Of a DNA stretch of 64,000 nucleotides, positions 4,901 through 24,152 are shown in pieces. How positions within the stretch are numbered: the stretch's first letter is position 1; each line of letters opens with the position of its first letter. The notes under the pieces were generated by a model. It was not told where the DNA came from. It saw only the letters and a list, made by a program, of their open reading frames with translations, and ran no database searches. Source of the stretch: Candidatus Aminicenantes bacterium (lineage in GTDB: Bacteria; Acidobacteriota; Aminicenantia; Aminicenantales; Saccharicenantaceae). The translations under genes and the position numbers were made by a program. The DNA lies in assembly GCA_963742235.1 (NCBI GenBank), contig CAVULT010000005.1, forward strand, positions 36,508 to 100,507, written 5' to 3'.

Positions 4901-4984
4901 ATGACCGACATCCTGGGACTGATCGTCGGGATTCTGCTCCTCGGCTATCTTCTGCTGAGTGTCCTGCGGCCCGAGAAGTTCTGA
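4901..4984 (+). CDS. kdpF: K+-transporting ATPase subunit F
   Basis: MTDILGLIVGILLLGYLLLSVLRPEKF. This is a single TM helix with the characteristic GYL...LLRPEKF C-terminus, immediately upstream of kdpA. Confidence 0.75.
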   Translation: MTDILGLIVGILLLGYLLLSVLRPEKF

Positions 4985-4997
4985 CGAGGTGACGACG

Positions 4998-6717
4998 ATG
5001 GACCTTTACGGCTGGCTTCAACTGGCCCTCTTCCTCGGCCTCCTCGTAGTGGTCACGAAGCCCCTGGGTCTCTACCTCATCCGGGTCCTCGAGCCCGAGG
5101 GCAGGACTTGGCTCGACCGCCCGGTCAAGCCCGTCGAGCGCCTCCTCTACCGGATCCTCGGCGTCGACCCGAAGACGGAGCAGGACTGGAGGCAATACAC
5201 CCGGTCCCTCATCGTCTTCAGCCTGGCCGGGCTGCTGTTCACGTACGCCGTGCTCCGGCTCCAGCATCTTCTCCCGTTGAATCCCCAGAAATTCGGACCC
5301 GTCGGGCCCGACCTCGCCTTCAACACCGCGGCCAGCTTCACCACCAACACGAACTGGCAGAATTACGCGGGGGAATCCACACTGTCCTACTTTTCGCAGA
5401 TGGTCGGGCTCGTTTTCCATAACTTTGTCTCGGCGGCGGCCGGCATCGCGGCGGCCGCGGCTCTGGTGCGGGGGATCGCCCGGCATTCGGCCAGGACGAT
5501 CGGGAATTTCTGGGTCGACGTCGTCCGCATCAACCTCTATCTCCTGCTTCCCTTCTCGATCGTCTTCTCGCTCTTCCTGACGTCGCAGGGGGTGATCCAG
5601 AACTTCAAGCCTTCCGTCAGGGCCACGACGGTCGAGAGCGCGGCCCGGACAGGCCATCGCCCAGGGCCCGGCGGCTTCCCAGGTGGCCATCAAGATGCTC
5701 GGAACGAACGGCGGCGGTTTCTTCAACGCCAACGCCGCCCATCCCTACGAGAACCCGACGCCCCTCTCGAACTTCCTCCAGATGCTCTCCATCCTCCTCA
5801 TCCCGAGCGGACTCACCTATTACCTCGGACGCAAGGTCAAGAACCAGAAGCACGGCTGGGCCCTCTGGAGCGCCATGGCCGTCATCTTCGTGGCCGCGGT
5901 GCTTGTCTGCTGGCGGTCCGAGAGCGCGGGCAATCCCCGCCTGCAGGCGCTCGGCGTCGACCCGGCCGGCGGCAACATGGAAGGCAAGGAGGTCCGCTTC
6001 GGCGTTTTCGACTCGAGCCTGTTCGCCACCGTCACGACCGCCGCCTCGTGCGGAGCGGTCAACGCCATGCACGACTCGTTCACGCCGCTCGGCGGCTTGG
6101 TCCCGCTCGTCAACATCCAGCTGGGCGAGGTCGTCTTCGGCGGGGTCGGTTCGGGCCTGTACGGGATGCTCGTCTTTGTCATCCTGGCCGTCTTCCTCAC
6201 CGGCTTGATGGTCGGACGGACGCCCGAGTATCTGGGCAAGAAGATCGAATCCTATGACGTGAAGGTCTCCGTCCTGGCCTTGCTCGTCCTGATCTTCTCG
6301 ATCCTCGGGTTCTCCGCCTGGGCCGCGACCAGCCGGTTGGGCCTGGCCGGGCTCGCCAACTCCGGCCCGCACGGCTTGAGCGAGATCCTCTACGCTTTTT
6401 CCTCCGGCACGGGCAACAACGGCAGCGGCTTCGCGGGCCTTGACGGCAACACGCCCTTTTATAACATCACCCTGGCTCTGGCCATGCTCTTCGGCCGGTT
6501 CATCATGATGGTTCCTGTCCTCGCATTGGCCGGGAACATGGCCCGGAAAAAGCTCGTCCCGCCGAGCGAAGCGAGCTTCCCCGCGAGCGGCCCGACGTTC
6601 GTCATCATCCTCATCGGGACCGTCCTCATTGTCGGCGCCCTGACCTTTCTGCCGGCCCTGGCCCTCGGTCCCATCGTCGAGCATCTCCTGATGACCGGAT
6701 CCGGGGTCCTGTATTAA
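4998..6717 (+). pseudogene. kdpA: K+-transporting ATPase subunit A, interrupted as sequenced by a 1-nt frameshift near 5641-5647
   Basis: RBS GAGGTG precedes ATG 4998. The N-terminal half lies in the frame of ORF 4959..6257 (MDLYGWLQLALFLGL...[13 protein letters not shown]). It continues in the frame of ORF 5683..6717 ([29 protein letters not shown]...). Both halves are collinear with KdpA. Confidence 0.9.
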
Positions 6718-6728
6718 GGGAGGATGAC

Positions 6729-8750
<2,022 letters not shown>

Positions 8751-8771: not shown

Positions 8772-9365
8772 ATGAAAGACTGGCTGGCCGAACTCAGGAG
8801 GTCGTTCCTGGCCGTGGCCGTCCTGGCCGTCATCCTGTGCGGCCTCTACCCGCTCGTGACCTGGGTCCTCGCTCAAGGCATCTTTCCCGGCCGGGCCAAC
8901 GGCTCGCTCATCGTGCGGGACGAAGTCGTCGCCGGGTCGAGCCTGATCGGCCAGGAGTTTGCGTCCCCGAAGTATTTTCACCCGCGCCCTTCGGCGGCCG
9001 GGAAGGGATACGACGGCGGCCGGTCCGGGGGGACGAACCTCGGGCCCTTATCGAAGGACCTCGTGGAGACTGTCCTCAGGCGGACAACCGAGTACCGGAA
9101 GGAAAATGGGCTCGCCGACGCGACTCCGGTGCCGGTCGACGCCGTCACGGCCTCGGGGAGCGGGCTCGACCCCCATATCTCTCCGGAAAACGCCCGGCTC
9201 CAGGCCTCCCGCGTGTCGAGAGCCCGGGGCCTCGCGGAGGACGTGGTCCTGGCCCGGATCAAGGCCTGCACCGAAGGCCGCACGCTGGGCATCCTGGGCG
9301 AGCCGCGGGTGAACGTCATGCGTTTGAACCTGGCCCTCGACGGAGTCTCCGATGCCGGAAGATAG
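8772..9365 (+). CDS. kdpC: K+-transporting ATPase subunit C
   Basis: N-terminal TM helix, with typical KdpC motifs (SGSGLDPHISPENARLQ, GILGEPRVNVMRLNLAL). Confidence 0.95.
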   Translation: MKDWLAELRRSFLAVAVLAVILCGLYPLVTWVLAQGIFPGRANGSLIVRDEVVAGSSLIGQEFASPKYFHPRPSAAGKGYDGGRSGGTNLGPLSKDLVETVLRRTTEYRKENGLADATPVPVDAVTASGSGLDPHISPENARLQASRVSRARGLAEDVVLARIKACTEGRTLGILGEPRVNVMRLNLALDGVSDAGR

Positions 9366-11031
9366 GGCCGACGCGTTCTTGCGGATGATCCGCCGGGCCC
9401 AGCGGGGGCGCCTGAAGATCTTCCTCGGCTACTCGGCCGGCGTCGGCAAGACCTATCAGATGCTCCAGGAAGGCCACCGGCTCAAGAGCGAGGGCATCGA
9501 CGTCGTCATCGGCCTCCTCGAAACGCACGGCCGGGCGGACATCGCCCGGCTGGCCGAAGGCCTCGAGGTCGTTCCCCGCCGCGTCCAGGAGTATCACGGC
9601 ATCGCCATCGAGGAGATGAACGCGGAAGCGGTCATCGCCCGCAAGCCCCAGCTGGCCCTGATCGACGAGCTGGCTCATACGAATGTCCCGGGCAGCCGGA
9701 ACGCCAAGCGGTACGAGGACGTCCTGGATATCCTGGCCGCGGGGATCCACGTCATCAGCACGCTCAACGTCCAGCACCTGGAAAGCCTCTACAACATCGT
9801 GGAGACGGCCGTCGGGGTCAAAGTCCGCGAACGTCTCCCGGATTCCATCCTGGCCGAGGCGGATGAGATCGTCGATGTCGACCTCGCGACCGACGACCTC
9901 CGGAAGCGCCTCGAGGAAGGGAAGATCTACCCGGCCGAGCGGATCGAAGCCGCGCGGGCCAACTTTTTCATAAGGTCCAACCTGGAAAAGCTGCGCGAGC
10001 TGACGCTTCGCGAGCTCGCCGCGCAGATCGACCTGCGCCGGCGCGAGGCCCAGGGGGCGGAGGGCGGCGCGGCCTCGGACCAGGTCATGGTCTGTCTGAG
10101 CTCGCACGGGCCGAACAGCGAGAGGCTGCTGCGCTACGGCTCCCGTCTGGCCGGAAAATTCAACCGAAACTGGTACGCCGTCTACGTCCAGACGCCGTCC
10201 GAGGAGGCCACGGTCATCGACGCTCAGGTCCAGCGCCATCTCTCGGACACGCTGACGCTGGCCAAACAGCTCGGGGCCATGGTCTTCACCTACAAGGGCG
10301 AGGACATCGCCGACACCATCCTCCGGTTCGCGGCGGAATACAGGGTCGGACACATCGTCGTGGGCAAGGCCTCCACGAGGCCTCTCTGGAAGCGGCTGGG
10401 CCGGAACAAAACGATCGTCGAGGACCTGATCAGGAACGCCCGTAACGCCACGGTCATCGTCCTGGATACGTGCCAGGCCCTGCCGGGATCCGTCCGTTCT
10501 CAACCCGAGATCCCGGAAGAAGCTTCCCCCGTCGGGCCGGCTGAGGGACCAAGTCTCCAGCCGGTCGACCGCCCTCGCCTGAGCCTCCTGTCGTCTCCCC
10601 GGCACATCGTGATCTGGGAGACGGCCGTCGAAAAGGAGACCGTTCTCAGGACCCTGGCCGCGACGGTCGCGAGGGAAGCCGGAAGCGAGTCCGCGGAGAG
10701 TGTTTTCGAGGCCATCATGAAACGGGAAGCCCAGGGCTCGACGTTTTTCAACGAGGGCGTGGCCTTCCCCCATGTCCGCGTGGAGGGATTGGCCGCTCCG
10801 GCGATCGCCCTGGGGTTGACGAGAGAGGGGGTCATCGACGTGGCGACCGACAAGCCCATCGAGATCGTCTTCCTCATCCTGTCACCGGCCCAAACCCCCG
10901 AGACACAGGTCAAGCTTCTGGGCCTGGTCAGCCGGGCTGCCCAGAACAGGTCGCTCATGCAGGCCCTGCGGTCCGTCCGGACGCCGGAAGAGGCCATGCG
11001 CGCGATCCGCGAATGGGAGACGTCGGCGTGA
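9352..11031 (+). CDS. KdpD N-terminal sensor domain + Usp domain fused to a PTS EIIA type-2 (EIIA-Ntr-like) domain; no TM region and no kinase core
   Basis: aa 18-225 match KdpD-N (KIFLGYSAGVGKTYQML, IDELAHTN). aa 243-372 match Usp (VMVCLSSHG...HIVVGK). aa 408-556 match the EIIA type-2 pattern, with the candidate phospho-His in GVAFPHVRVEG (His474, nt 10771-10773). The start overlaps the kdpC end. Confidence 0.85.
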   Translation: MPEDRADAFLRMIRRAQRGRLKIFLGYSAGVGKTYQMLQEGHRLKSEGIDVVIGLLETHGRADIARLAEGLEVVPRRVQEYHGIAIEEMNAEAVIARKPQLALIDELAHTNVPGSRNAKRYEDVLDILAAGIHVISTLNVQHLESLYNIVETAVGVKVRERLPDSILAEADEIVDVDLATDDLRKRLEEGKIYPAERIEAARANFFIRSNLEKLRELTLRELAAQIDLRRREAQGAEGGAASDQVMVCLSSHGPNSERLLRYGSRLAGKFNRNWYAVYVQTPSEEATVIDAQVQRHLSDTLTLAKQLGAMVFTYKGEDIADTILRFAAEYRVGHIVVGKASTRPLWKRLGRNKTIVEDLIRNARNATVIVLDTCQALPGSVRSQPEIPEEASPVGPAEGPSLQPVDRPRLSLLSSPRHIVIWETAVEKETVLRTLAATVAREAGSESAESVFEAIMKREAQGSTFFNEGVAFPHVRVEGLAAPAIALGLTREGVIDVATDKPIEIVFLILSPAQTPETQVKLLGLVSRAAQNRSLMQALRSVRTPEEAMRAIREWETSA

Positions 11032-11851: not shown

Positions 11852-11933
11852 TCTCCGCTCTGGGCGGCAAAGGATGGAGTTGAAAAACCGCTCCGTTTCC
11901 GCTAATTTGGAAATAGAGGGAATGGGAGGTCAT

Positions 11934-12221
11934 ATGAAAAAAGCTGCGTTCTTGATTCTCTTGGGTGTCATTTCGGTTCTTCTCGCCGACTGCATTGTCA
12001 CCTATCCGACGTTCGGTCCTCCCGAGATGAGGGCGGAAGTCATTGTCGGAGGCCCCAGACCCGGATACGTTTGGATAGGTGGGCACTGGGGATGGTCGGG
12101 CGGCAACTATGTCTGGACCAAGGGGTACTGGGCCAAGGCCAAGCATGGGCGGACCTGGGAGCCCGGACGCTGGGAACAGAGGGGCCGGAAGTGGGCCTGG
12201 CGGGACGGCCGCTGGCGATAG
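11934..12221 (+). CDS. Small lipoprotein with YXWGXW-type repeats
   Basis: RBS GGGAGG precedes ATG 11934. Lipobox LLADC. Repeats YVWIGGHWGW, NYVWTKGYWAK, WEPGRWE and KWAWRDGRW. Confidence 0.6.
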   Translation: MKKAAFLILLGVISVLLADCIVTYPTFGPPEMRAEVIVGGPRPGYVWIGGHWGWSGGNYVWTKGYWAKAKHGRTWEPGRWEQRGRKWAWRDGRWR

Positions 12222-14267
12222 CTATTTCTTGTCCGGTAGGGCAGCGGCCCGATCGACGGCGGCGGCCAGGTCCCTGAGGGTCAGGGGTTTCATGACGACC
12301 TCGCTCACGCCTGCCTCCCGGAGGGAATCCTCGTCGACCGACTTGCTGTAGCCCGTGGTCAGGATGATCGGAAGGTCGGGGCTGATCCTCCGCAGCTTAG
12401 CGGCCAGCTCGAGGCCGCTCATTTGGGGCATGGTCTGATCGACGACGGCCAGGTCGAAATTCTGGGGCCCGGTGCGGAAAAGCGCCAGCGCCCCGGCGGC
12501 GTTCCTGACCGCTGTCGGCTTATGACCAAATGATTCCAGGGCCCGCCGCATGGTATCGAGGACCATATCTTCGTCGTCGACGAGGAGAATGCGCCGGCTC
12601 TGGACGGCAGGGCCCCTGTCCCGAGCCCGGCGATCGCCCGCCGGCGCGACCTCGTCCGCCGTCGGGAGATAAACGCTCACGTCGGTCCCGCGGCCCACGC
12701 CGCTCTCGACGGTGATGGCCCCCCCATGGCTTTTGACGATCCCGTGGACGACCGAAAGCCCGATCCCCGTTCCCTTGCCCGCCTCCTTGGTCGTGAAAAA
12801 AGGATCGAAGATCCGATCGAGATTCTGGGGCGGTATGCCGCAGCCCGTATCTTTGACCGTCAGCCTCACGTAGGGCCCCGGGGGGACGTCGAGGAGAAAG
12901 TCTTTCGCGTCAAGATCGACGCTGGCGAGCGAAACCTCCAGGACCCCGCCCCGCTCGGCCATGGCGTCGACGGCGTTCGCGCACAGGTTGGTGACCAGCT
13001 CGTGGATCTCCGTCGGGTCTCCGCTCACTGTATCCTTAGGTTTATCCGCAACATAGCGCATCTCGATCGAGGCCGGCAAGGACGGCTTGATGAGCGTCAA
13101 GGCTTCGTCGACGACGGGTTGGATGCGGATGGCCCGGAGGTTCTGCTTCGTTTGGCGGGTGAACGACAGGATCTTCTTGACCAGGTCCCTCTGGCGGTAG
13201 GCCGCCTGGAGGATATTCTTCAGCATCGCGTGGTTCGGGGTGCCCGGTTCCGTCTCGCCGAGGAGCAGCTCGGCATTGACGACGATGGGCAGGAGGATGT
13301 TGTTCAGGTCGTGGGCGACGCCGCCAGCCAGCCGTCCGAGGGCCTCGGTGCGTTCCATCTGGCGAATCGTCTGCTCGAGCTTCATGGCGTGCGTGACATC
13401 GCGGAAGAAGACGATATAGCTCGAGATGGCCCCGGTTTGGCTCCTCAGGGGGACCACGGAGACATCCAGATCGATGGGCTTCCCGTCTTTCCGGATCCTG
13501 CCGACGTGGCCTTTCCAAATCCCCTCATTCGCGAGGACTCTCCTGACGTCTGCGACGGTCTCCGCTCCGAATCGTTCCTGGCCGGTTCCGACAAGCTCGC
13601 TGTCCGCGTACCCCGTGATCTTTTGGCAGGCCGGATTGGCGTAGATGATCTCTCCGGCCGGGTTCAGGATCATGACGCCGTCGACGGCCTGGGAAACCAC
13701 GGCCGCCAACCGCGTCAGCTCCTCCTGCGTCCGCTTTTGCTCGGTCATGTCGGCGATGACGCCGGACAGGGCGCGGATGCCTTGGATCGACATGGGCGCA
13801 AGGGACAGACGGGCCTGGAGGCGTCCGCCGGACGCCTTGAGGAATTCCACATCCGCGCGAGCGGTTTCTTTTTCGGCCTTGGCCACGAGCCGCTCCAGGT
13901 CTTCCAGAGCTGACGGCGCCGCCCGGCTGAAGAGGTTGTCCCCAAGGAGCTCCTCCAGGGAGACGTCCAGCATGGCCGCGAATTGCCTGTTGGCATAGAT
14001 AATGAAACCGTCGGGGCGGATGGTCACGGTCCCTTCGCCCATATTTTCGACGATCATCCGATAGGGGCGATCGGCGTCCTTCAGGGTATAGACCTGGTCG
14101 CCGAGCGGCCCCTTGATGACCAGGGCATCGACTTCGCCCATGCGAATGGCGTTCAGGCTCTCTTCGGCCTCCTCCAGGCGCCGCCTGAGCGCGGCGGTCT
14201 CGCGACGAGGACTGTCCAGGTCGAGGGCCTGATCCGTCACCGGCCGTCCCGCTTTCGATCCAGCCAT
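12222..14267 (-). CDS. Hybrid sensor histidine kinase (coiled coil, 2 PAS, HisKA, HATPase_c, C-terminal receiver)
   Basis: H-box GGVAHDLNNIL. G-boxes DTGCGIP and GTGIGLSVV. Receiver ILLVDDE...LAVVDQTMPQMSG...KP. RBS GGAGGA. It is the last gene of the kai operon. Confidence 0.9.
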   Translation of the reverse strand: MAGSKAGRPVTDQALDLDSPRRETAALRRRLEEAEESLNAIRMGEVDALVIKGPLGDQVYTLKDADRPYRMIVENMGEGTVTIRPDGFIIYANRQFAAMLDVSLEELLGDNLFSRAAPSALEDLERLVAKAEKETARADVEFLKASGGRLQARLSLAPMSIQGIRALSGVIADMTEQKRTQEELTRLAAVVSQAVDGVMILNPAGEIIYANPACQKITGYADSELVGTGQERFGAETVADVRRVLANEGIWKGHVGRIRKDGKPIDLDVSVVPLRSQTGAISSYIVFFRDVTHAMKLEQTIRQMERTEALGRLAGGVAHDLNNILLPIVVNAELLLGETEPGTPNHAMLKNILQAAYRQRDLVKKILSFTRQTKQNLRAIRIQPVVDEALTLIKPSLPASIEMRYVADKPKDTVSGDPTEIHELVTNLCANAVDAMAERGGVLEVSLASVDLDAKDFLLDVPPGPYVRLTVKDTGCGIPPQNLDRIFDPFFTTKEAGKGTGIGLSVVHGIVKSHGGAITVESGVGRGTDVSVYLPTADEVAPAGDRRARDRGPAVQSRRILLVDDEDMVLDTMRRALESFGHKPTAVRNAAGALALFRTGPQNFDLAVVDQTMPQMSGLELAAKLRRISPDLPIILTTGYSKSVDEDSLREAGVSEVVMKPLTLRDLAAAVDRAAALPDKK

Positions 14268-14297
14268 GGCTCAATCCTCCGGGCTAACGCCTGTCTC

Positions 14298-14723
14298 TCA
14301 GAGGTCCTTCTTTTTGGGCAAGAGATCCAACCCGACCAGAATCTTCTCGGTCTGCGAGAGGTCGCCGATGAAGGTCCGGAGCGGCAGTGGCAGCTTCCGG
14401 ATCAGCGTCGGGGCCACGACGAGCTGCTCCTTCGCGGCCAGCTCGGGTTGCTGGTAGATATCGATGATCTTCAGCCGGTAGCGTCCCTTGAGATGCTTCT
14501 CGCAAATGCGCTTGATGTTCTCGATGGCCATGACGGACCGCGGCGTCGTGCCGGTCACGTAAAGCCTCAGGAGGTACGTCCTGGCGTCATCCGAGCTCAG
14601 GGCTTTTTCGAAGGCCCCGGACCTGTTCCCGGGATTGCTTCTCTTGGCTTGGCGCGGCGCTTTTCCTGTCACGATGTTCCCCCGCTTCCGTTGACCCCTT
14701 GGATGGGCCATAGAAGCCGTCAT
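14298..14723 (-). CDS. kaiB: KaiB paralog with a roughly 45-aa basic N-terminal extension
   Basis: KaiB core [76 protein letters not shown] 14723 overlaps the upstream kaiB stop (ATGA). ATG 14711 is an alternative start. The 230-aa track ORF is an over-extension. Confidence 0.8.
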
Positions 14724-15019
14724 TGGCAGATCCTGATGTCGAGTCCCACCAGGACGCGCTCGGTATTGGAAAGATCCCCGATGATCTTCTTGATCGGCGT
14801 CGGCAGCTTCCGCACCAGCGTCGGGATGGCGAAGATCTGGTCTCCCCGGGCCAACTGCGGGTTCTCGACGAGATCGACGACCTCGATGCGATACTGTCCC
14901 GCCAGGTGCTCTTCGCAGATTTTCTTGAGGTTGGCGAACGCCACAAGCGATTTCGGCGTCTGCCCGGCGACGTACAGCCTGAGCTCCCACCGCTTCGCAC
15001 GTTTCTTCTGGGTCGGCAT
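14720..15019 (-). CDS. kaiB: Circadian clock protein KaiB homolog
   Basis: 99 aa with a thioredoxin-like KaiB signature: [72 protein letters not shown]. Confidence 0.9.
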
Positions 15020-15022
15020 CGT

Positions 15023-16786
15023 TCAGACCCTCCTTCTCGGCTCGCGCTTCCCGTCTGCGGGCTTCTCCGCGCTTTCTCCGTCCGCCTTCCGGCTCTTGGC
15101 CATGATCTCCCGATCTTCGTCTTGAACCCGAAGACCGTTCTTGGCGTAAGCAAGCTTCTGCCGGAGGTCGGTTTCGTCTCTCTCCACCTCGCCGCGGAGC
15201 CTGGCGATCTGGGCCTCGGCCTCGACGCGTTTTCGCTTGACGTCGGCTTCAAGCCGCTTGATCTCCCGCTGCTGCAAGCGTATCAGGTTCCTGTCTTCCG
15301 CTTCGCGAGAAGCCCGGGCTGAGCCGGTGAGGACGCCGGACGGCCCGAGGTAGACGTCGAGGAGGTCGATGCCCTTCGAGGACAGCACGAACTCGCGGAT
15401 CTGGTTCGAATGGGCCATGCCCCGTGATTTCAGGATATAGATGCCGCGGTTGCGCTCGCCGCCGATCTCGATATCCCTCAAAAAGATCCAAGTATCGGCC
15501 AGGGACGAGATGGAGACGGTTGTGGACTCGAGGTTCTCTCCCCCGGGCGTCAGGCTCGTGAACAGGCCCGTGGCGCCCCTGTTCTTCAGGAACGTGGAGA
15601 AGCGCATCAGCATGAGACGGACATCTCGCGTTGTCGCCACGGTCGTGAAGTTCGAGAGCGGATCCATCACCACGACCTTGGGGTCGAGGTCTTCGATTTG
15701 GCGCTGCATTGTGACGAGATGGGTCTCCAGTCCGTAGACGGTCGGGCGCGGCGCGTAGAACTTGAGCAGGCCTTTCTTGATGCAACGGTCAAGGTCGATG
15801 CCGATGGACTTCATATTCCGCATGACCTGGCCGGGGGATTCCTCGAACGTCAGGAAGACCGCGCGCTCTCCTCTGGCGCAGGCCGCTTCGACGAATTTGG
15901 CCGCGATGCTCGTTTTCCCCGTGCCGGCCGTCCCGGAGACGAGGATCATGCTGCCGCGATAGTAGCCCTTCCCGCCCAGCATGGCGTCGAGCCGCGGGAT
16001 GCCCGTTGAAACACGCTCCCGGCTCGCCGGGCGCTCGGAGTAGGCCAGGGAGGTGACGGGCAGGACCGAGATGCCGGTATCGGTGATGAGGAAGGGATAC
16101 TCGTTCGTGCCATGGGACGAGCCCCGGTATTTCAGCACTCGCAGACGGCGCGTCGGGACCTGGTCTTCCATCCTGTGGTCGAGAAGGATGACGCAGTCGG
16201 AGACGTATTCCTCGAGTCCCTCCCGGGTGAGGTGGCCGTTGCCGGCCTCCGCGGTGATGACGCTGGTCATCCCCTTTTCCTTGAGCCAGCCGAACAGGCG
16301 GCGCAGCTCCGCCCGGAGGATGCCGGCATTGGGCAAGCCGGCGAAAAGCGATTCGAGGGTGTCGAGGACGACGCGCTTGGCCCCGACCGATTCGATGGCG
16401 TGGTTGAGCCGGATGAACAGGCCCTCGAGGTCGTATTCGCCCGTTTCCTCGATCTCGTGGCGCTCAATCCTGACGTGGTCGATGACCAGCTTCTTCGTCG
16501 CCGCGAGCTTGTTCAGGTCGTAGCCGAGGGACTTGACGTTGGCCGCCAGCTCCTCCCCCGTCTCCTCGAAGGCCATGATGACGGCCGGCTCGTTGTATTC
16601 GGCGGCGCCCTTGACGGCGAATTCGATGCCCATGAGCGTCTTCCCCGTTCCAGGGGTGCCGACGATGAGGGTCGTCCGGCCGCGCGGGAATCCGCCGTCC
16701 GTCACTGCGTCGAGGCCTCGGATGCCTGTTGCGGCCTTTTCGAGGCCGGGGCCGAGAGCGCCTGCATTGGGTTTCTTCTTCGCCAT
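15023..16786 (-). CDS. kaiC: KaiC homolog (double RecA/P-loop domains) with a roughly 100-aa C-terminal coiled-coil extension
   Basis: Two Walker A motifs (GTPGTGKT, GTAGTGKT). Catalytic EE pairs (AFEETGEE, TFEESPGQ). The segment VSISSLADTWIFL is equivalent to the S/T phosphosite region. RBS GGAAGGAGAAAG precedes ATG 16786; the track start at 16873 is an over-extension. Confidence 0.9.
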   Translation of the reverse strand: MAKKKPNAGALGPGLEKAATGIRGLDAVTDGGFPRGRTTLIVGTPGTGKTLMGIEFAVKGAAEYNEPAVIMAFEETGEELAANVKSLGYDLNKLAATKKLVIDHVRIERHEIEETGEYDLEGLFIRLNHAIESVGAKRVVLDTLESLFAGLPNAGILRAELRRLFGWLKEKGMTSVITAEAGNGHLTREGLEEYVSDCVILLDHRMEDQVPTRRLRVLKYRGSSHGTNEYPFLITDTGISVLPVTSLAYSERPASRERVSTGIPRLDAMLGGKGYYRGSMILVSGTAGTGKTSIAAKFVEAACARGERAVFLTFEESPGQVMRNMKSIGIDLDRCIKKGLLKFYAPRPTVYGLETHLVTMQRQIEDLDPKVVVMDPLSNFTTVATTRDVRLMLMRFSTFLKNRGATGLFTSLTPGGENLESTTVSISSLADTWIFLRDIEIGGERNRGIYILKSRGMAHSNQIREFVLSSKGIDLLDVYLGPSGVLTGSARASREAEDRNLIRLQQREIKRLEADVKRKRVEAEAQIARLRGEVERDETDLRQKLAYAKNGLRVQDEDREIMAKSRKADGESAEKPADGKREPRRRV

Positions 16787-16872
16787 CGTCTTTCTCCTTC
16801 CCTCAGCGCCCATTGCGGCCGAGAAGAAAAGGGCCCCGTAAATGACGAGCTGGAGCCGGATACGGTAGGCCA

Positions 16873-16901
16873 ACTATATTCCGGGCCTTGGACAGAGTCA
16901 A
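16873..16901 (-). promoter_or_regulatory. Sigma-70-type promoter for the kai operon
   Basis: On the minus strand, TTGACT (16901-16896), a 17-nt spacer, then TATAGT (16878-16873). It lies about 85 nt upstream of the kaiC ATG. Confidence 0.45.
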
Positions 16902-17051: not shown

Positions 17052-17080
17052 TTGACAGATGCCCGGACATATGGAATATT
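17052..17080 (+). promoter_or_regulatory. Possible sigma-70-type promoter (divergent from kai)
   Basis: TTGACA (17052-17057), a 17-nt spacer, then AATATT (17075-17080), in the only AT-rich patch of a 0.7-kb gene-poor gap. Confidence 0.25.
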
Positions 17081-17287: not shown

Positions 17288-17495
17288 GGCGCCTGGCCGG
17301 AGGAATCCGGCACCCCTCCCCGGCCCCGGCAGACGGTCCTGAGGTCCAAGGTGAGGATCGCCTCTCCGGTTTTTTTCCCGAAACTCGACGGCCTGTCCGA
17401 CAAAATCTCATGGTGGCTGCGCCCGGTCGCGGGCGGCGTTCCTTGATTTAGCCCGGAGCGAGTGGTATTTTGGATGCCAAGTCCTCGCAGGTGAT

Positions 17496-18434
17496 ATGAA
17501 AAGCAAAGTCTTGGTTGTGTTCATCCTTGCCTCCCTGGCCGCCTGGCCGGGCAGGCAGGCCTTTGCCCAGGAGAAGGTCCAGGATCTGACCGCCCACGAA
17601 TATGTCGTCCGGGCCATCACGCTGGCCGTCACGGTCCAGGATTCCAGGGGGCGCTTCGTCAACAACCTGACCGAGAAGGACTTCACGATCTACGAGAACA
17701 ACAAGAAGAAGCCGATCACCTACTTCCTGCACGATTTCGGGGCCCCGCTCAGCCTGACCGTCCTCCTCGACGTCAGCGGCAGCATGGCCCTCGAAGGCAA
17801 GCTCGACGAGTGCAAGGCCGCCCTCCGCACCCTGGCCACCCGGCTGCTTCGGCCCCGCGACGAGATCGCCCTCCTCCTCTTCGCCGACGGGCAGGTCGAG
17901 GTGGCCGCCAAGCACGCGACGGACAAGAGCGAGTTCCTGCGGGTCCTCGATAAGACCGAAGCCTACGGTCAGACCGCCCTCAACGACGCCGTGGCCGTGT
18001 CGCCGGAGTTCGCGACCAGGGCCAAGAACGAGAAGCGGGCCCTCCTTCTCATCACCGACGGCATCGAGAACGACAGCCAGGCGACCCCGGAACAGGCCCT
18101 CGAGATCGCCCGGCGGGTCGATGTCCCCATCTATACGATCGGTTACAAGATCCCCCGCAACGAGCAGCTCGCCGCCCACAAGCGGGCGGCCAGCCTGACT
18201 TCGGCCGGGATCGTCGAGACCCTGGACAAGTTCTCCCAGGCCACGGGCGGCAAGGCCTGGTTCCTGAACGAGCCGACGGACCTGACCGAGGTCATCCAGG
18301 AGATCAGGAACGAGCAGAGCCACCAGTATATCATCGGCTACACGTCCTACCAGGATACGTCCGACCTCTACCGCTGGATCCGGGTGACGACGCCGAACCC
18401 CAGGCACAAGATCCGTACCCGCCAGGGGTACTGA
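17496..18434 (+). CDS. Secreted VWA-domain protein (VWFA-related Acidobacterial domain type)
   Basis: Signal peptide. MIDAS-like LLDVSGSM. Motifs GQTALNDAV and LLLITDGIEN. The C-terminal YIIGYTS...RWIRV...RTRQGY is typical of the TIGR03436 family. Confidence 0.85.
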   Translation: MKSKVLVVFILASLAAWPGRQAFAQEKVQDLTAHEYVVRAITLAVTVQDSRGRFVNNLTEKDFTIYENNKKKPITYFLHDFGAPLSLTVLLDVSGSMALEGKLDECKAALRTLATRLLRPRDEIALLLFADGQVEVAAKHATDKSEFLRVLDKTEAYGQTALNDAVAVSPEFATRAKNEKRALLLITDGIENDSQATPEQALEIARRVDVPIYTIGYKIPRNEQLAAHKRAASLTSAGIVETLDKFSQATGGKAWFLNEPTDLTEVIQEIRNEQSHQYIIGYTSYQDTSDLYRWIRVTTPNPRHKIRTRQGY

Positions 18435-18478
18435 GGCTGTCCGCCGCCTGTTGTCCGGGAACCCTGATATCCTCCCAA

Positions 18479-18509
18479 GGGGGTATTTTTCCCCCGGACC
18501 TTTATTTTT
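18479..18509 (+). terminator. Rho-independent terminator candidate after the VWA gene
   Basis: GGGGG-TATTTTT-CCCCC hairpin (18479-18495) followed by TTTATTTTT (18501-18509). Confidence 0.45.
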
Positions 18510-18600
18510 CCGGGGAAAAAGCATAAGATGGTCGCATGCGGGGTCGGGGTCGATCGGCGGCGCTCAGCCGCTCGTCAAGAATCATCAACAGGAGGTTCTC

Positions 18601-19236
18601 ATGAAGAACAGGAAGATTGTGTATCTCACGGGGTTCCTGCTTTTGGCCGCTCTCATCACCGGACCGGCCTGCGCCACGAAGAAGTTCGTCAAGACCGAAT
18701 CGGCGACGCTCGACCAGAAGATCTCGGGCGTCTCGACCGAGGTCGAGGCCAACCAGAAGCGGATCGCCGAGCACGACGAGAAGCTGGCCACGATCGGCTC
18801 GCTCATCTCCAAGCATGACGACCAGTTCAAGGCCGTCGAGGGCGAGATCGGCGAGGTCAAGACCCTCATCAAGGGCAACCTCGTCATGACCGCCACGCTG
18901 AAGAATGACGAGGCCAAGTTCGCCTTCAATGACGCCACGCTCACCCCCGCGGCCAAGGGTGTTCTCGACGCCTTCGTCCAGAGGCTCGTCACGGAGAACA
19001 AGGGCGTCTACATCGAGATCCAGGGCCACACCGACAACACCGGCGGCGATGAGATCAACATGGCCCTCGGCCAGAAGCGGGCCGAAGCGGTGCTGATGTA
19101 CCTTTACAAGACCTACAAGATCCCGCTCTACCGCATGTCGGCCATCAGCCTGGGCAGCTCCATGCCCGTCGCCGACAACGGGACGCGCGACGGCCGCAGC
19201 CAGAACAGGCGGGTCGAGATCCTCGTCTACGAATAA
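18601..19236 (+). CDS. OmpA-family lipoprotein with a coiled-coil N-domain
   Basis: RBS AGGAGG precedes ATG 18601. Lipobox ITGPAC. OmpA_C motifs GHTDNTGGDEINMALGQKRAEAV and NRRVEILV. Confidence 0.85.
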   Translation: MKNRKIVYLTGFLLLAALITGPACATKKFVKTESATLDQKISGVSTEVEANQKRIAEHDEKLATIGSLISKHDDQFKAVEGEIGEVKTLIKGNLVMTATLKNDEAKFAFNDATLTPAAKGVLDAFVQRLVTENKGVYIEIQGHTDNTGGDEINMALGQKRAEAVLMYLYKTYKIPLYRMSAISLGSSMPVADNGTRDGRSQNRRVEILVYE

Positions 19237-19266
19237 GAGCGCGAGTCCAGGAATTTCCTCACCGGG

Positions 19267-19290
19267 GGCAGGGCCTCTAAAGGCCTTGCC
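19267..19290. terminator. Hairpin between convergent genes (bidirectional terminator candidate)
   Basis: GGCAGGGCC-TCTAAA-GGCCTTGCC forms a 9-bp stem with one G-U pair. It lies between the OmpA stop (19236) and the M6 protease stop (19299). Confidence 0.4.
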
Positions 19291-19298
19291 TCCGGCCT

Positions 19299-21308
19299 TT
19301 ACCTTGCCGTGGCCGAGGCGGCAAGCCCTTCCCTACCCAGAGCGTTGACCCCCACGACCTCATAGGCGTAGACCTCAGAGCTGTCGATCCTCCGGTGGAG
19401 GTAGCGGTACGCGGTGCCGCCCGCGGCCTTGGGCGCCTCGGCCACGAGCGCGCGGCCGCCGCCGGCGACGATCCGGTAGATCCGATACTTCTGGACGCTC
19501 TGGTTCCGGGAATTGTCCGCCCAGGTCAGGACATTGGCGTATTCCCGCAGGAGCAGGCTGCGGATGACCGACCGGGTCGCCTTGAGGTTGACGACCGGGA
19601 AGATGTTGTCCATGACGACGCCGACATCCGCTTCGCTGTGCGCGCCGGTCGAGTCGTAAGCGACGGCCCGAACCGTGTGCGCCCCGTTCGTGAACAGGGT
19701 CGTATCGAGGATGAAGGAGAATGGGGGCGCGGTCAGCGTCTGGCTCAGATAGCTGTCGCCGTAGAGCTCGACGCGGGCCAGGCTGCCGTCGTCGCTGGCC
19801 GCGACCTCGACCTCGAGGGCTCCGTACACCGTCTGGCCGGCGGCCAGGTTCGTGATGGCGACGATCGGAGGGTTGTCGCCGGCGGTGATGGTCACGCTCA
19901 TCGGGGTCGTCGTCCCGGAGATGTCCGACAGGGCCATGGCCGTCTGCCCTCCGTCATACCTCGCCGAGCTCGGAAGAGTCGAAGGGCCGAACGTCATCCC
20001 CGCCTTGTAGTAGTCCCCCGCATCGGCCGAAGCCGCCCAGGTCTCGATCTCCTCGAGCCCGTCGGCCTCCATGAGCCGGAGGAGCTTGTGGGCCGAGTAG
20101 GAATTATCGGACAGGAAGTCCCAGCTCCAGGTATCGAGCCGGGCGTCGACGTGCCAGACGACCAGGCCGTCGGAGCCTGTGAAGAGGCTCGTGTCGTTGC
20201 CCGAGCGGGCCCGGTTCTGGACCATGAAGTACTCGTCGAAGATGCGGCCCTCGACGGCTCCGGGCATGAACAGGACCGCGTCGGGGTAGAGCCCCGAGGC
20301 CCTCAAGGCGACCGTTTGCGATCCCGTCGATACGACCGTGGGCGTGATCCAGTCCAGCATGAACTTCGAAAAGCAGTTGTGATCGCCGGAGCCGTCCATG
20401 ATGTCGAGGCCGCCGACGCCGCCCCGCGGGCCGACCGCGTCGTCGTAGTCATAGTAGTCGGGCACCCCGAGGGCATGTCCGGTTTCGTGGATGATCGTGC
20501 TCGGCGTGAAGCCGCCGCCGGGGTAATTGTACAGCTCCCACTGCCAGGAGTAATTCGTCAGCCGCTTGCCGTCGAGACGAAAGGTCGAGTCGGAGAACCA
20601 GGTGTAATAGCCCCACCAGAACTCGGCCCAGCCGTCGTGCGGGCCGCTCCAGAAGACGCACAGGTAGTCGATCGTGCCGTCGCCGTCGTTGTCGTACTGC
20701 GAGAAGTCGCGCCCCTGGGCGTCGTAGTAGCTCAGGGCCTCCTTGATCAGGTTCTCGCGGCCCGCGTCCGTTTCGGCCACCGTGCTCCTGGCGTAGGGGG
20801 CCTGGTACCAGCCGAGCACGTCTCCGGTGATCGTCAGCCGGTCATAGGAAGCCCGCCGGTAGAAGTTCCTCAGGCTGTCGAACGGCGGGCCGCCGGCGCC
20901 GCTTCCGAAAAGCCGTGATTCGAAAGTCGCCGGGGCGGTCGTCCCCGGGTAGTCGGAAAACGAGATGAGCAGGGTCAGGATCCTGACCGTCCCGGTCGTC
21001 GGCATGCCTTTCCAGGCGCCGGGCGGCGCGAGAATGACGGCGGGGGAAGCGGCGCGCGCGGGAACGGCGCCGCGCCCCGTGATCAGGCGGGTCACCTTGT
21101 CGCGGAGCCGCGCCCTCATCAACTGGGGGATCTTGTGGTTGCCGAGGGCCCTGGCCCGGGCGGCGCGGGCGGCCATCGTCCCATCGAGCTTGTACCGGGC
21201 GATCTGCTCCTTCGTCGGCGGCTCGAGGGCCAGCCCCGGCAGAAGACCGGCGACGAAGAACGCGGCCACAAGCATCGCCGCGAAAAGGGGACGTGAGGTT
21301 TGCGCCAT
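19299..21308 (-). CDS. M6-family (immune inhibitor A-like) secreted metalloprotease with C-terminal Ig/FN3-like domains
   Basis: Signal peptide from MAQTSRPLFAAMLVAAFFVAG. Zinc motif IIHETGHALG. An M6 domain pattern follows (DYYDYD...GGLDIMD). Confidence 0.85.
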   Translation of the reverse strand: MAQTSRPLFAAMLVAAFFVAGLLPGLALEPPTKEQIARYKLDGTMAARAARARALGNHKIPQLMRARLRDKVTRLITGRGAVPARAASPAVILAPPGAWKGMPTTGTVRILTLLISFSDYPGTTAPATFESRLFGSGAGGPPFDSLRNFYRRASYDRLTITGDVLGWYQAPYARSTVAETDAGRENLIKEALSYYDAQGRDFSQYDNDGDGTIDYLCVFWSGPHDGWAEFWWGYYTWFSDSTFRLDGKRLTNYSWQWELYNYPGGGFTPSTIIHETGHALGVPDYYDYDDAVGPRGGVGGLDIMDGSGDHNCFSKFMLDWITPTVVSTGSQTVALRASGLYPDAVLFMPGAVEGRIFDEYFMVQNRARSGNDTSLFTGSDGLVVWHVDARLDTWSWDFLSDNSYSAHKLLRLMEADGLEEIETWAASADAGDYYKAGMTFGPSTLPSSARYDGGQTAMALSDISGTTTPMSVTITAGDNPPIVAITNLAAGQTVYGALEVEVAASDDGSLARVELYGDSYLSQTLTAPPFSFILDTTLFTNGAHTVRAVAYDSTGAHSEADVGVVMDNIFPVVNLKATRSVIRSLLLREYANVLTWADNSRNQSVQKYRIYRIVAGGGRALVAEAPKAAGGTAYRYLHRRIDSSEVYAYEVVGVNALGREGLAASATAR

Positions 21309-21379
21309 CGGACCGCTTTCTCCGCGGCAAATATAGGCCTCGACGGCGATCAAGTCAAACCGGGCGCGCCGGGGCGGAT

Positions 21380-22372
21380 TCAGCGCACGCCGAAGTTGAA
21401 GCCCGTCCGCTCCTCGCTCCTGTCCGTGGCCGGCGGCGGCTCCGGGGACAGGGCGGCGATCTCGGCCCTGAGCTCCGGCGTCATCGGGATGTCCGCGGCG
21501 GCGAGAAGCGGGGCGAGCTGGGCCGTGTTCCTGGCCCCGACGAGCGGCGCCGTGACGGCGGGATGGGAGCCGACCCAGGCGACGGCCAGCCCGGCCGGAT
21601 CGAAGCCGCGCTCCCTGGCGAAGGCGGCGAACCGCTCGGCCACGTCGTAGTTCAGGTCGTCCACATAGCGGGTGGCGTAGATCTTGTTGGAGACCAGCCG
21701 TCCGGCCTCGGGCCGGCGGCCGGGGCCGTACTTGCCGCTCAGGAGTCCCCCGCCGATCGGGCTGTACGGAAAGACGCCCAGCCCTTCGGACAGGGCCAGG
21801 GGCAGGATCTCGACTTCGGCCTGGCGCTTGACCAGATTGTACATCGGCTGGATGCAGGCGAACGGGGCCAGGCCTTCCTTGGCCGAGACGCCCAGCGCCT
21901 TGGCGACTTGCCAGGCGGCGAAATTGCTGGCCCCGAGGTAGAGGACCTTGCCCGAGCCGACGAGGTCATCGAGGGCCCGCAGGGTCTCTTCGAGCGCCGT
22001 GCGGTCGTCGAAGCGGTGGACATAGTAGATGTCGATGCGGTCGGTTTGGAGGCGCCGGAGCGAGGCCTCGACGGCGTACTGGATGTGGCGGCGCGACGCT
22101 CCCATGGCGTTGACGTCCTTGGAGGTCGCGAAATAGGCCTTGCTCGTGATGAGCACCTCTTCCCGGCAGTCCTTGATGAGGCGGCCCAGGATCTCCTCGG
22201 ACCGTCCGCCGGCGTACATGTCGGCACAGTCGAAGAGGTTGACGCCGGCCGCGCGGCAGAGCTCGAACAGAGCCTTGGAACCCGCCTCGTCGGCGTCGCC
22301 GCCGAAGGACATCGTCCCATAGGCGATGGCCGAAACCTTGACCCCGGTCTTGCCCAGAAATTTATAGATCAT
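21380..22372 (-). CDS. Aldo/keto reductase
   Basis: AKR signature along the whole 330 aa (FDCADMYAGGRSEEILG, IDIYYVHRFD, GKVLYLGASNF, GVFPYSPIGGGLLSGKY). Confidence 0.9.
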   Translation of the reverse strand: MIYKFLGKTGVKVSAIAYGTMSFGGDADEAGSKALFELCRAAGVNLFDCADMYAGGRSEEILGRLIKDCREEVLITSKAYFATSKDVNAMGASRRHIQYAVEASLRRLQTDRIDIYYVHRFDDRTALEETLRALDDLVGSGKVLYLGASNFAAWQVAKALGVSAKEGLAPFACIQPMYNLVKRQAEVEILPLALSEGLGVFPYSPIGGGLLSGKYGPGRRPEAGRLVSNKIYATRYVDDLNYDVAERFAAFARERGFDPAGLAVAWVGSHPAVTAPLVGARNTAQLAPLLAAADIPMTPELRAEIAALSPEPPPATDRSEERTGFNFGVR

Positions 22373-22385
22373 GTCGATCTTCCTT

Positions 22386-24152
22386 TCAGGACGTTTTCTT
22401 CTTCAGTTCGAGCCCGTGGCCGATCGGATAGAGGTCCGGGATCGAAACCGGCAGCTTCCCGGTCACATCCATTTCCCCGGCCAGGGCCCGGGCGGCGGTC
22501 GACTGGGTCTCCGGAGTGTCCTTGTACAGGCAAAGGTAGGCGTCGATCCCGGGGAAATGCCTCAGGACATAGGGGCTGCCGAAGGACACCGCGACGATCT
22601 TCGGCCGGCCGGGCAGGGCCGACAGCTTGCGGATGAGCTCGATGTGCTTCGGCTCGAGGTCGACGCTCCCCTTCCGGTCGCTCAGCCTCGAGAACAGGGC
22701 CAGGACGACGGCGCCGGCGGAAGAGGCCTTGGCGAAAGCGTCGTCAAGGAGGTCCTGGCCGGTGTCCGCGTCGGCGTAGAAGGCGGCGGCCCCGGGGAAC
22801 CTGTCCTCTATCGCGGCGACGAAAGCCTGGCCGGCGAAATAGTCGCCGAGGTCGCTGCTGAGAGAGAGCACGACGAGCCCGCCGGCGCCCGCGGAGAGCG
22901 GCAGCACGCCGCCCTCGTTCTTGACCAGCGTCGCCGAGCCTTCCAGGATCCTGGCGGCCTGATCGAGGTTGGCTTTGGGGGCGACGAGACGGCTGAGGGC
23001 GTCGATCCGGACGAAGCGATGGCGCTGGAGGCCGAGCGAGGCCTTGGCTTCGAGGATCCGGCGCACCGAGGCGTCGATCCTGGCGGCCGGGATGCGGCCA
23101 TCGCGGACGGCCGCGGACAGATAGGCGATGACCTTGACGGGATCGGGCGGCAGGAGGAGCTGGTCGACCCCTGCCAGGACGGCCCGGAGCGAGGCTTCCT
23201 CGGTGGAAAAGGCATTGGTCACGCCGGCCATCTCGAGGGCGTCGGTGACGATGAGACCTTTGAAGCCCATCTTCTGCCGCAGGAGACCGGTCAGGATCGG
23301 GGCCGAAAGGGTCGCCGGGACGCCGGGCGTCGGGTCGAGGGCCGGGACGGCCAGGTGGGCCGTCATGACCGCCTTGACGCCGGCGTCAACGGCCTGCTTG
23401 AACGGAAAGAGCTCGACCTTCTCCAGCCGCTCGAGGTCGGCGGTGATGGTCGGCATGAGGCTGTGGGAATCCTGGGACGTGTCGCCGTGGCCCGGGAAAT
23501 GCTTGGCCGTGGCGATCATGCCGTTGTCCTGGACGCCGCGGATGAAGGCGTCGGCGAGCCGGCTGACGAGGGCCGGGTCGGCGCCGATCGAACGGGTGTT
23601 GATGATGGGATTGTCGGGGTTGATGTTGACGTCGACGACCGGGGCATAGGTCACGTGAATGCCCATGGCCCGGCCTTCGACGGCCGTGACCTTGCCCATG
23701 GCGTAGGCGAGGTCCTCGGAGCCGGTCGCGCCAAGGGCCATGAACGGCGGGAAGAGCGTCGCGTTGCTGACCCGGTTGGCCGCTCCCCTCTCGAAATCGG
23801 AGGCCATGAGGAGGGGGACCTTGGCCAGCTTCTGGAAGGCGTTCGTGAGCTCGGCCGTTTCGTAGACGCGCGCGGGCGCGAAGAGGACCAGGCCGCCGAT
23901 CTTCGAATCGGAGACGAGAGACTCGAGCTCGCGGAGGGTGGCGCTGTCGGCGTTGCGGAAATCGGCCGTGAAGCGGCAGGCGACCATCTGGCCGACCTTC
24001 TCCTCGATGGTCATCCTCTTGAGGGTCCGGGCGACCCAGCCGGCGTCGGGAGCGACAAGCCGAGGGCCCGAGGCCGGCGCCGGGAGGCGGGCGCAGCCCG
24101 AGACGGCGAGCGCCAGGAGGGCGGCCGCGGCCGCCGCTTGGATTCTTGTCAT
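22386..24152 (-). CDS. Glycoside hydrolase family 3 (NagZ/beta-hexosaminidase-like, two-domain) lipoprotein
   Basis: Lipobox AVSGC. GH3 motifs EEKVGQM, KHFPGHGDTSQDSH and GLIVTDALEM. Confidence 0.85.
   Translation of the reverse strand: MTRIQAAAAAALLALAVSGCARLPAPASGPRLVAPDAGWVARTLKRMTIEEKVGQMVACRFTADFRNADSATLRELESLVSDSKIGGLVLFAPARVYETAELTNAFQKLAKVPLLMASDFERGAANRVSNATLFPPFMALGATGSEDLAYAMGKVTAVEGRAMGIHVTYAPVVDVNINPDNPIINTRSIGADPALVSRLADAFIRGVQDNGMIATAKHFPGHGDTSQDSHSLMPTITADLERLEKVELFPFKQAVDAGVKAVMTAHLAVPALDPTPGVPATLSAPILTGLLRQKMGFKGLIVTDALEMAGVTNAFSTEEASLRAVLAGVDQLLLPPDPVKVIAYLSAAVRDGRIPAARIDASVRRILEAKASLGLQRHRFVRIDALSRLVAPKANLDQAARILEGSATLVKNEGGVLPLSAGAGGLVVLSLSSDLGDYFAGQAFVAAIEDRFPGAAAFYADADTGQDLLDDAFAKASSAGAVVLALFSRLSDRKGSVDLEPKHIELIRKLSALPGRPKIVAVSFGSPYVLRHFPGIDAYLCLYKDTPETQSTAARALAGEMDVTGKLPVSIPDLYPIGHGLELKKKTS

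Follow-up and report, generated by a model that had tools for sequence, protein, structure and literature searches.

How would a Kai timer that lacks KaiA pass its state on to the rest of the cell? The question is raised by positions 12222..16901 of a 64,000-nucleotide stretch (hereafter the window) of a Candidatus Aminicenantes contig, where four minus-strand genes, all intact and full-length, encode KaiC, two KaiB proteins (KaiB-a and KaiB-b) and a PAS-PAS hybrid histidine kinase. We consider it fairly probable that they form one transcription unit, which encodes a KaiBC timer that works without KaiA, of the type known from Rhodobacter sphaeroides (KaiC2), and a signalling kinase, with KaiB-b coupling the two. 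Judged by homology, the parts are a KaiC2-type KaiC with both ATPase/kinase domains and the C-terminal tail, a KaiB-a of the type of R. sphaeroides KaiB (RsKaiB), and an intact hybrid kinase.

The predicted transcription unit and its KaiC

The genes are tightly packed, with 3 nt between kaiC and kaiB-a, a 4-nt overlap (ATGA) between kaiB-a and kaiB-b, and 30 nt between kaiB-b and the kinase gene, which has its own GGAGG ribosome-binding site. Upstream of kaiC is a sigma-70-type promoter-like site, leaving a 5' untranslated region (UTR) of ~80 nt up to the kaiC ATG. A consensus promoter scan alone is no proof of promoter function (3 such sites were found in 5.8 kb against 0.8 expected); nonetheless both hexamers, TTGACT and TATAGT, are identical at the locus with the nearest KaiC (87% identity), that of another Candidatus Aminicenantes metagenome-assembled genome (MAG; locus L001), and their retention amid diverged flanking upstream DNA is taken as a phylogenetic footprint. 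The L001 contig is colinear with window positions 12260..16830 and 17421..23216 at 77-78% nucleotide identity; the organism behind the window is accordingly a relative of that one, not a cyanobacterium and presumably not a phototroph.

Translation of kaiC is taken to begin with the ATG at 16786, which follows a GGAG ribosome-binding site and is conserved in L001; the TTG at 16873, given as the start of kaiC in the open reading frame (ORF) list, was rejected as unlikely because that codon overlaps the -10 box. For kaiB-b the start is the ATG of the ATGA overlap at 14723, in agreement with the public gene call (P0001, 141 aa) and with the N-termini of relatives. Terminator scanning returned sites no more numerous than in shuffled sequence, none of them convincing inside the operon and none downstream of the kinase gene, and an Rfam scan of the whole window returned one tRNA only, leaving both the 5' UTR and the 590-bp spacer upstream free of riboswitches and small RNAs. 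From the spacing and the single conserved promoter-like site we predict that the four genes are one transcription unit. The features of its upstream half are as follows.

16873..16901, minus strand: sigma-70-type promoter-like site TTGACT-17-TATAGT, 10 of 12 consensus positions matched
15023..16786, minus strand: kaiC, 587 aa, KaiC2 / R. sphaeroides type, with matches to PF06745 (twice) and NF006799
16058..16732, minus strand: KaiC CI domain, aa 19-243, with Walker A GTPGTGKT at aa 43-50 and catalytic EE at 74-75
15329..16024, minus strand: KaiC CII domain, aa 255-486, with Walker A GTAGTGKT at aa 285-292, EE at 315-316 and the T422/T423 position
15503..15508, minus strand: codons of Ser427-Ser428, aligned with S413/S414 of R. 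sphaeroides KaiC and S431/T432 of S. elongatus KaiC
15089..15328, minus strand: KaiC C-terminal extension, aa 487-566; the HMMER alignment to the R. sphaeroides structure 8DBA reaches residue 566
15026..15088, minus strand: charged tail of KaiC, aa 567-587, after the coiled-coil-like extension

PF06745 matched KaiC in two stretches (E 2.6e-110, 367.7 bits; cutoff 26.6) and NF006799 matched it at 701.8 bits (cutoff 408), while the cyanobacterial equivalog model TIGR02655 gave 354 bits, under its cutoff of 546.25. The best solved structure was likewise that of R. sphaeroides (8DBA, 610.6 bits, as against ~348 bits for S. elongatus KaiC), with 51% identity over 561 residues and a phosphosite alignment of ISSLADTW in the window to LSSLMDGW in 8DBA. 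The C-terminus is ~70 aa longer than that of S. elongatus KaiC (519 aa). The extension spans ~100 aa overall, of which ~80 aa align with the R. sphaeroides coiled coil; its best heptad register places hydrophobic residues at 10 of 18 a/d positions, and the 80 nearest KaiC relatives matched out to query residues 566-587. Paired serine phosphosites and a long C-terminal tail are marks of the KaiC2 clade (PMC5520375, PMC10076222). By its sequence, then, this KaiC is of the KaiC2 / R. sphaeroides coiled-coil type and is not a cyanobacterial KaiC1, given the TIGR02655 score below cutoff, the SS rather than ST pair and the longer C-terminus.

The C-terminal extension, which went unmentioned in the initial annotation of this DNA, is the most diagnostic feature of the protein, and it would explain why KaiA is not needed. 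In R. sphaeroides two hexamers are joined by a 12-helix coiled coil made of these tails, which keeps the A-loop exposed, such that autophosphorylation proceeds without KaiA (PMC10076222). The CI domain is the expected docking ring for KaiB. No gene lies between the promoter-like site and kaiC, hence no kaiA there, and a Pfam scan of ~44 genes across the 64-kb window found none that was KaiA, CikA, SasA or RpaA-like.

All that the initial annotation had stated about the structure of the locus was borne out by these analyses: four packed minus-strand genes behind a TTGACT-17-TATAGT promoter (recovered in full, coordinates included, with the hexamers conserved in L001), a double-domain KaiC with a Walker A motif and an EE pair in each domain and with SS in place of ST (Pfam and NCBIfam matches, motifs located), the lack of kaiA, and a non-cyanobacterial genome, as the colinearity with the Aminicenantes MAG attests. 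So too for the two KaiB paralogs and the PAS-PAS hybrid kinase with its own receiver, described below.

Two observations concern the flanks of the operon. Within the 590-bp spacer a second promoter-like site (TTGACA-17-AATATT with an extended TG, 17052..17080, plus strand) points away from kaiC and probably serves the divergent genes for a VWA-domain protein (17496..18434) and an OmpA-family protein (18451..19236). At the other end, a gene for a small WXXGXW-repeat lipoprotein (11874..12221, plus strand) is convergent with the kinase gene, their stops ending at 12221 and 12222; the two abut with neither spacer nor terminator, and synteny with L001 stops exactly there.

A second KaiB class and the kinase beside it

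Downstream of kaiC follow the two KaiB genes.

14720..15019, minus strand: kaiB-a, 99 aa, ortholog type of R. sphaeroides KaiB; PF07689 at 95.8 bits
14298..14723, minus strand: kaiB-b, 141 aa, second KaiB clade; PF07689 at 90.2 bits, KaiB domain at aa 53-133, basic N-terminal extension
14598..14612, minus strand: FEKAL motif, aa 38-42 of the KaiB-b N-terminal extension; Phe38 near-invariant in the clade

The two proteins share 52% identity, and both are far above the PF07689 cutoff of 27 bits. Both miss the cutoffs of NF006798 (102.6 bits for KaiB-a and 98.7 for KaiB-b; cutoff 110) and TIGR02654 (97.8 and 93.1; cutoff 145.3), which marks them as KaiB-family members but not as cyanobacterial equivalogs. 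The best match of KaiB-a in the PDB was RsKaiB (8FWJ_M, 113.8 bits; ~63% identity), and the Legionella structure 4KUN was matched at 56 bits by KaiB-a and 46 bits by KaiB-b. In a neighbor-joining (NJ) tree of 113 KaiB sequences the a- and b-types formed two separate, well-conserved clades, with RsKaiB in the a-clade. KaiB-a is the most conserved component of the cassette (mean pairwise distance 0.24); KaiB-b is about equally distant from cyanobacterial and R. sphaeroides KaiBs and has a sequence signature of its own, its match to the SasA model NF006800 being weak (29.8 bits; cutoff 342).

In the b-clade the N-terminus is usually extended, and the extension bears a conserved "ds..FE..L" motif that precedes the first strand by ~12 residues; F38 is kept in at least 90% of 102 clade sequences. 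Members from the Aminicenantes group have a longer, highly basic extension, and their relatives share conserved N-termini. Searching with a profile built from the clade recovered representatives of the KaiB family at large, 7357 of them at E<1e-3 and 322 at E<1e-30. Our literature search, of incomplete coverage and thus yielding absence of evidence only, found no paper that describes the KaiB-b clade, a kaiC2 cassette with two KaiBs, or KaiB-PAS fusions; we regard KaiB-b as a conserved second KaiB clade, undescribed as far as we found.

The last gene of the operon is that of the kinase.

12222..14267, minus strand: hybrid histidine kinase, 681 aa, with two PAS domains, HisKA, HATPase_c and receiver
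13713..14210, minus strand: N-terminal module of the kinase, aa 20-185, comprising the helix EAEESLNAIRMGEVDALVI and the first PAS domain, conserved beside kaiB across phyla
13392..13712, minus strand: second PAS domain, aa 186-292, by Pfam
12660..13340, minus strand: HisKA (aa 310-372) and HATPase_c (aa 416-536), with phospho-His319 at 13311..13313
12255..12590, minus strand: receiver domain, aa 560-671, with phospho-acceptor Asp610 at 12438..12440, DD564-565, T637 and K660

Its catalytic motifs are in order: His319 lies in AHDLNN, the G1 and G2 boxes read DTGCG and GTGIGL, and the acidic pocket of the receiver is intact. Beside kaiB, at 39 loci, only the first ~190 residues of the kinase are consistently conserved (31-42% identity), that is, a helix with the consensus EAEETLRAIRSGEVDALVV and the PAS domain after it. 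Comparison of the window kinase with the R. sphaeroides KD131 locus by tblastn gave 27% identity over 305 aa (E 3e-14) with the motif EAEETLKAIRQGDVDALVV present; the kinase encoded there, 3' of kaiC-kaiB, has the same N-terminal module and an HWE-type catalytic core. Because the module is conserved next to kaiB and is joined in R. sphaeroides to that other core, we read it from these alignments as the Kai-associated part of the kinase, to which differing outputs are attached. Distant relatives of the module were sampled at three loci, and all three sit immediately after kaiC-kaiB-kaiB, with the kinase there divided among several short gene calls, apparently through frameshifts; the word-indexed search behind them returned 32 short matches that served only as seeds for context look-ups. 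The possibility that the first PAS domain is a LOV photoreceptor was considered and rejected, the match to YtvA being weak (25 bits) and the NCRFLQ cysteine motif absent.

For the distribution of the cassette we used a genome collection with one representative for each of 185,579 GTDB species, in which at least 540 stretches encode a KaiC relative, and examined the closest 80 loci. An a-type KaiB followed by a b-type was found in 43, an a-type only in 20, and no KaiB downstream in the remaining 17. The order in the 43 was always kaiC-a-b, with the kinase N-module directly after it in 30, and they include Methanoperedens, Bathyarchaeota, deltaproteobacteria, Chloroflexota, Bacteroidota, Planctomycetota, Acidobacteriota and Binatia. 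Plasmid p3 (NZ_CP119568.1) of the cultured Pararhizobium qamdonense T808 has this set of four genes as well, and RefSeq labels them kaiC, kaiB, KaiB family protein and response regulator. The layout that the initial annotation had singled out, two KaiBs with a dedicated kinase, is therefore real but not peculiar to this genome. Throughout, KaiB-b was the KaiB gene that adjoins the kinase gene, loci of the order a-a-b included.

There were variants of the layout. Two Methanoperedens loci (L005 and L030) have three KaiB genes after kaiC, in the order a-a-b, and a deltaproteobacterial MAG (L025) has two full kaiC-kaiB cassettes in tandem. In three loci of Gallionellaceae/Nitrosomonadales (L023, L034 and L049) the single KaiB branches with the b-clade in the NJ tree, so b-type-only systems may exist.

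Natural fusions tie the components together. In P0283 (1104 aa; locus L086, 5001..8315) KaiB-b, including its FE..L extension, is in frame with the helix and PAS module, which is followed by PAS-PAS-GGDEF-EAL. The identical protein is encoded on two independent contigs of different sources (L086 and L087), behind kaiC and an a-type kaiB, so it is not an assembly error; two receiver genes and hybrid kinases lie downstream. Its domain content suggests a cyclic di-GMP (c-di-GMP) output for a Kai timer and, as far as sequence can tell, is the SasA arrangement of a KaiB fold with an output protein, independently reached. The initial annotation had also noted the lack of a SasA-like kinase. This is true of the window, whose kinase has no KaiB domain by Pfam and hence is not SasA-type, but does not extend to the related lineage of P0283, where KaiB-b is fused to the same PAS module. 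Elsewhere KaiB-b is fused to a receiver domain (P0203, 284 aa; L088, 1165..2019, on one 2.3-kb contig), and P0153, P0155 and P0157 are apparently intact a::b tandem fusions. Such fusions indicate that KaiB-a, KaiB-b and a module-bearing signalling protein work in one complex. Five further candidates were discarded: P0004 and P0030 as frameshift run-throughs of supposed a::b fusions, and P0159, P0162 and P0240 as artefacts.

A proposed timer with an output, and rival readings

RsKaiB binds the post-hydrolysis CI ring and raises ATPase activity, phosphorylation of R. sphaeroides KaiC tracks how much ATP there is relative to ADP, and the system is an hourglass rather than a self-sustained clock (PMC10076222). 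By analogy, KaiC of the window would autophosphorylate without KaiA by means of its coiled-coil tail, KaiB-a would bind its post-hydrolysis CI ring and raise its ATPase activity, and KaiC would lose phosphate as cellular ATP/ADP falls and regain it as the ratio rises. Such a system would act as an hourglass, or delay switch, under the control of energy state and would not run freely as a clock, and in an anaerobic, non-phototrophic host such a timer would report metabolic state rather than light. In this respect the reading of the initial annotation, a KaiA-less timer or stress switch, agrees by analogy with the closest characterised system, R. sphaeroides KaiBC.

Gene order, conservation and fusions suggest that KaiB-b would also dock on KaiC and would couple the state of KaiC to the hybrid kinase through the N-terminal helix and PAS module, a role that would be the counterpart of the KaiB-like domain built into SasA in cyanobacteria; KaiB-b and the kinase may thus be a SasA equivalent split into two proteins. 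The kinase would autophosphorylate on His319 and pass the phosphate to its own Asp610 and from there to an Hpt protein or response regulator encoded outside the operon. More tentatively, and as one possibility among several, KaiB-b in general could be an ancient and widespread KaiB class of trans-acting, SasA-like adaptors that dock on the CI ring and recruit or gate a PAS-kinase or PAS-GGDEF-EAL output, possibly via the FE..L extension. If that were true, the timers of dark-living bacteria and archaea would have a three-protein core (KaiC, the regulator KaiB-a and the coupler KaiB-b) that converts cellular energy state into phosphorelay or c-di-GMP signals, and competition of KaiB-a and KaiB-b for the ring could give delayed negative feedback, as KaiA sequestration does in cyanobacteria.

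Several points weigh against this account of the operon. A 51%-identical homolog is the source of all that is proposed on the dodecamer, autophosphorylation, KaiB binding and the regulation of the kinase, and the adaptor role of KaiB-b draws mainly on one kind of fusion in one lineage. The kinase N-module also occurs in single-KaiB loci, that of R. sphaeroides included, and so does not need KaiB-b, and the KaiB-b of Pararhizobium has no room for an N-terminal extension. In a mirror-tree comparison of the 31 loci with all four parts, all parts co-varied with KaiC (r 0.58-0.78), and the partial correlation of KaiB-b with the kinase module fell to 0.09 once KaiC was controlled for, although this is a weak test. 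An AlphaFold2 model of KaiB-b from the 102-sequence clade alignment had a mean pLDDT (predicted local distance difference test) score of 58, with a confident N-terminal half, an ambiguous C-terminal half and a low-confidence helix at 34-43 in the extension, which is too low to settle the fold state or the extension. Pfam scans of the window genes found no Hpt protein or response-regulator partner encoded near the operon. Finally, the PAS kinase could feed into the timer instead of serving as its output.

Chief among the rivals is a reading in which KaiB-b serves solely as another regulator of KaiC: a subfunctionalised paralog on the CI ring, differing in affinity, state preference or timing, that for instance sharpens or lengthens the delay without acting as an adaptor, while the kinase reads KaiC directly through its PAS module. 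We hold this to be somewhat unlikely, but it accounts well for part of the data. KaiB-b tracks KaiC (r 0.71; partial r 0.59 given KaiB-a) more than it tracks the kinase module, with which it showed no residual coupling in the mirror-tree comparison; the presence of the module in single-KaiB loci is as this rival would have it, and the a::b tandem fusions suggest that both KaiBs sit side by side on one partner. Moreover, a Pseudomonas KaiC homolog binds its neighbouring kinase via the N-terminal PAS domain of that kinase (bioRxiv 10.1101/2022.01.26.477890), and does so without any KaiB. What this rival leaves aside is that P0283 and P0203 join KaiB-b specifically to signalling proteins (to the N-module and to a receiver), and that KaiB-b always adjoins the kinase gene, even where two a-type genes precede it.

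We think it improbable that the locus is a stress-response switch with no timing function, in which the PAS kinase is a sensor input (for redox, oxygen or a small ligand) and modulation runs from KaiBC to the kinase or the other way; a role of this kind has been proposed for Legionella KaiBC and the KaiC homologs of Pseudomonas. Light-driven physiology is not evident in the host, an uncultured Aminicenantes of sediment type, the same cassette occurs in anaerobic archaea (Methanoperedens and Bathyarchaeota), studies of Legionella and Pseudomonas connect stress resistance with KaiC homologs, and the neighbouring PAS kinase has been proposed as a sensor in R. sphaeroides (PMC10931921). However, KaiC of the window is much nearer the R. 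sphaeroides hourglass protein than the KaiB-less KaiC-like proteins of Pseudomonas, and the first PAS domain, lacking the LOV cysteine motif, has no assignable cofactor; besides, a stress switch is compatible with an hourglass driven by ATP/ADP, and the two are not mutually exclusive. That the operon is a chance juxtaposition or annotation artefact with a fortuitous promoter-like site is effectively refuted, despite the frameshifted genes of the window (kdpA and pgk) and the limits of consensus promoter scans, by the four intact frames, the same order in dozens of unrelated genomes and the promoter hexamers kept in L001.

With KaiB-b as the putative coupler, the cassette gives a concrete and testable model of output, where work on R. 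sphaeroides accounts for the timer without extending to its output, and Pararhizobium qamdonense T808 is a culturable organism of the same layout in which the model can be tested. The occurrence of the cassette in non-phototrophic sediment lineages supports energy-state sensing over light sensing. The locus overturns no current understanding; rather, it makes the signalling of KaiA-less Kai timers directly testable.

Neighbouring genes and known Kai systems

Elsewhere in the window, a kdp region lies on the plus strand. The kdpA gene is split over two frames (4959..6717), with ORF 4959..6257 covering positions 2-206 of the KdpA profile and ORF 5683..6717 covering 219-548, either by an assembly-error frameshift or as a pseudogene; kdpB (6729..8750) and kdpC (8772..9365) follow intact. 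Directly 3' of kdpC, at 9352..11031 (plus strand), one gene joins the N-terminal sensor domain of KdpD to a PTS EIIA-2 domain (EIIA-Ntr-like) and has no histidine-kinase core, an unusual architecture for KdpD. Upstream of the kdp genes, at 1419..4815 (plus strand), are encoded a sigma-54-dependent response regulator (REC-AAA) and a 4HB-HAMP-PAS histidine kinase, which may control kdp in place of KdpDE. The phosphoglycerate kinase gene (30841..32020, plus strand), between gap (29754..30833) and tpi (32021..32809), is apparently frameshifted as well, with only profile positions 216-376 in frame, at 31502..32020; together with that of kdpA this suggests indel errors typical of long-read assemblies. 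Genes for a PAS-GGDEF diguanylate cyclase (28237..29739, plus strand), a Ser/Thr protein kinase with TPR repeats (50941..54171, minus strand) and a Tricorn-like protease (PD40, PDZ and S41 domains; 35088..38387, minus strand) have no positional link to the Kai operon.

That kaiC-kaiB occurs with an associated kinase has been on record since 2011 and 2016, and a kaiC-B-PAS/HK (histidine kinase) operon has been described for Rhodopseudomonas palustris and R. sphaeroides (PMC4794148). The core of the locus is this already known type of KaiBC-PAS-kinase operon. The closest likeness is to R. sphaeroides KD131 KaiBC (8DBA, 8FWI and 8FWJ; Pitsawong et al. 2023, PMC10076222), which has the kaiC-kaiB-kinase order, the SS sites, the coiled-coil tail and no KaiA, but a single KaiB and an HWE-type kinase core without a receiver; moreover, the KD131 operon is plasmid-borne in a phototroph, with a day/night ATP/ADP cue, whereas the window host is a non-phototrophic Aminicenantes. 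In R. palustris (Ma et al. 2016, PMC4794148), kaiC, kaiB and a PAS histidine kinase lie behind one predicted promoter and KaiC-dependent, hourglass-like timing occurs without KaiA; again there is a single KaiB, and the likeness is drawn at the level of operon concept.

Other systems resemble the locus in part. On p3 of Pararhizobium qamdonense T808, KaiC is 56% identical to that of the window and is followed by an a-type and then a b-type KaiB and by a hybrid kinase with an N-module 41% identical, HisKA, HATPase and receiver; it differs in an acidic N-terminal extension on KaiB-a and the lack of an extension on KaiB-b, and, as far as the literature searched shows, is known from RefSeq annotation only. 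Cyanobacterial SasA, a KaiB-like thioredoxin-fold domain joined to a histidine kinase, is a functional analogy, in that a KaiB-fold domain docks a kinase on KaiC; in the window, however, the KaiB-fold protein and the kinase are separate polypeptides, and the kinase has PAS and receiver domains. The KaiBC of Legionella pneumophila and the KaiC-HK of Pseudomonas are likewise non-cyanobacterial KaiC homologs tied to two-component proteins and to stress resistance, but Pseudomonas has no KaiB, the Legionella KaiB is distant, and neither has the two-KaiB layout. We therefore place the locus as one member of a widespread two-KaiB variant, undescribed as far as we found, of the R. sphaeroides / R. 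palustris type.

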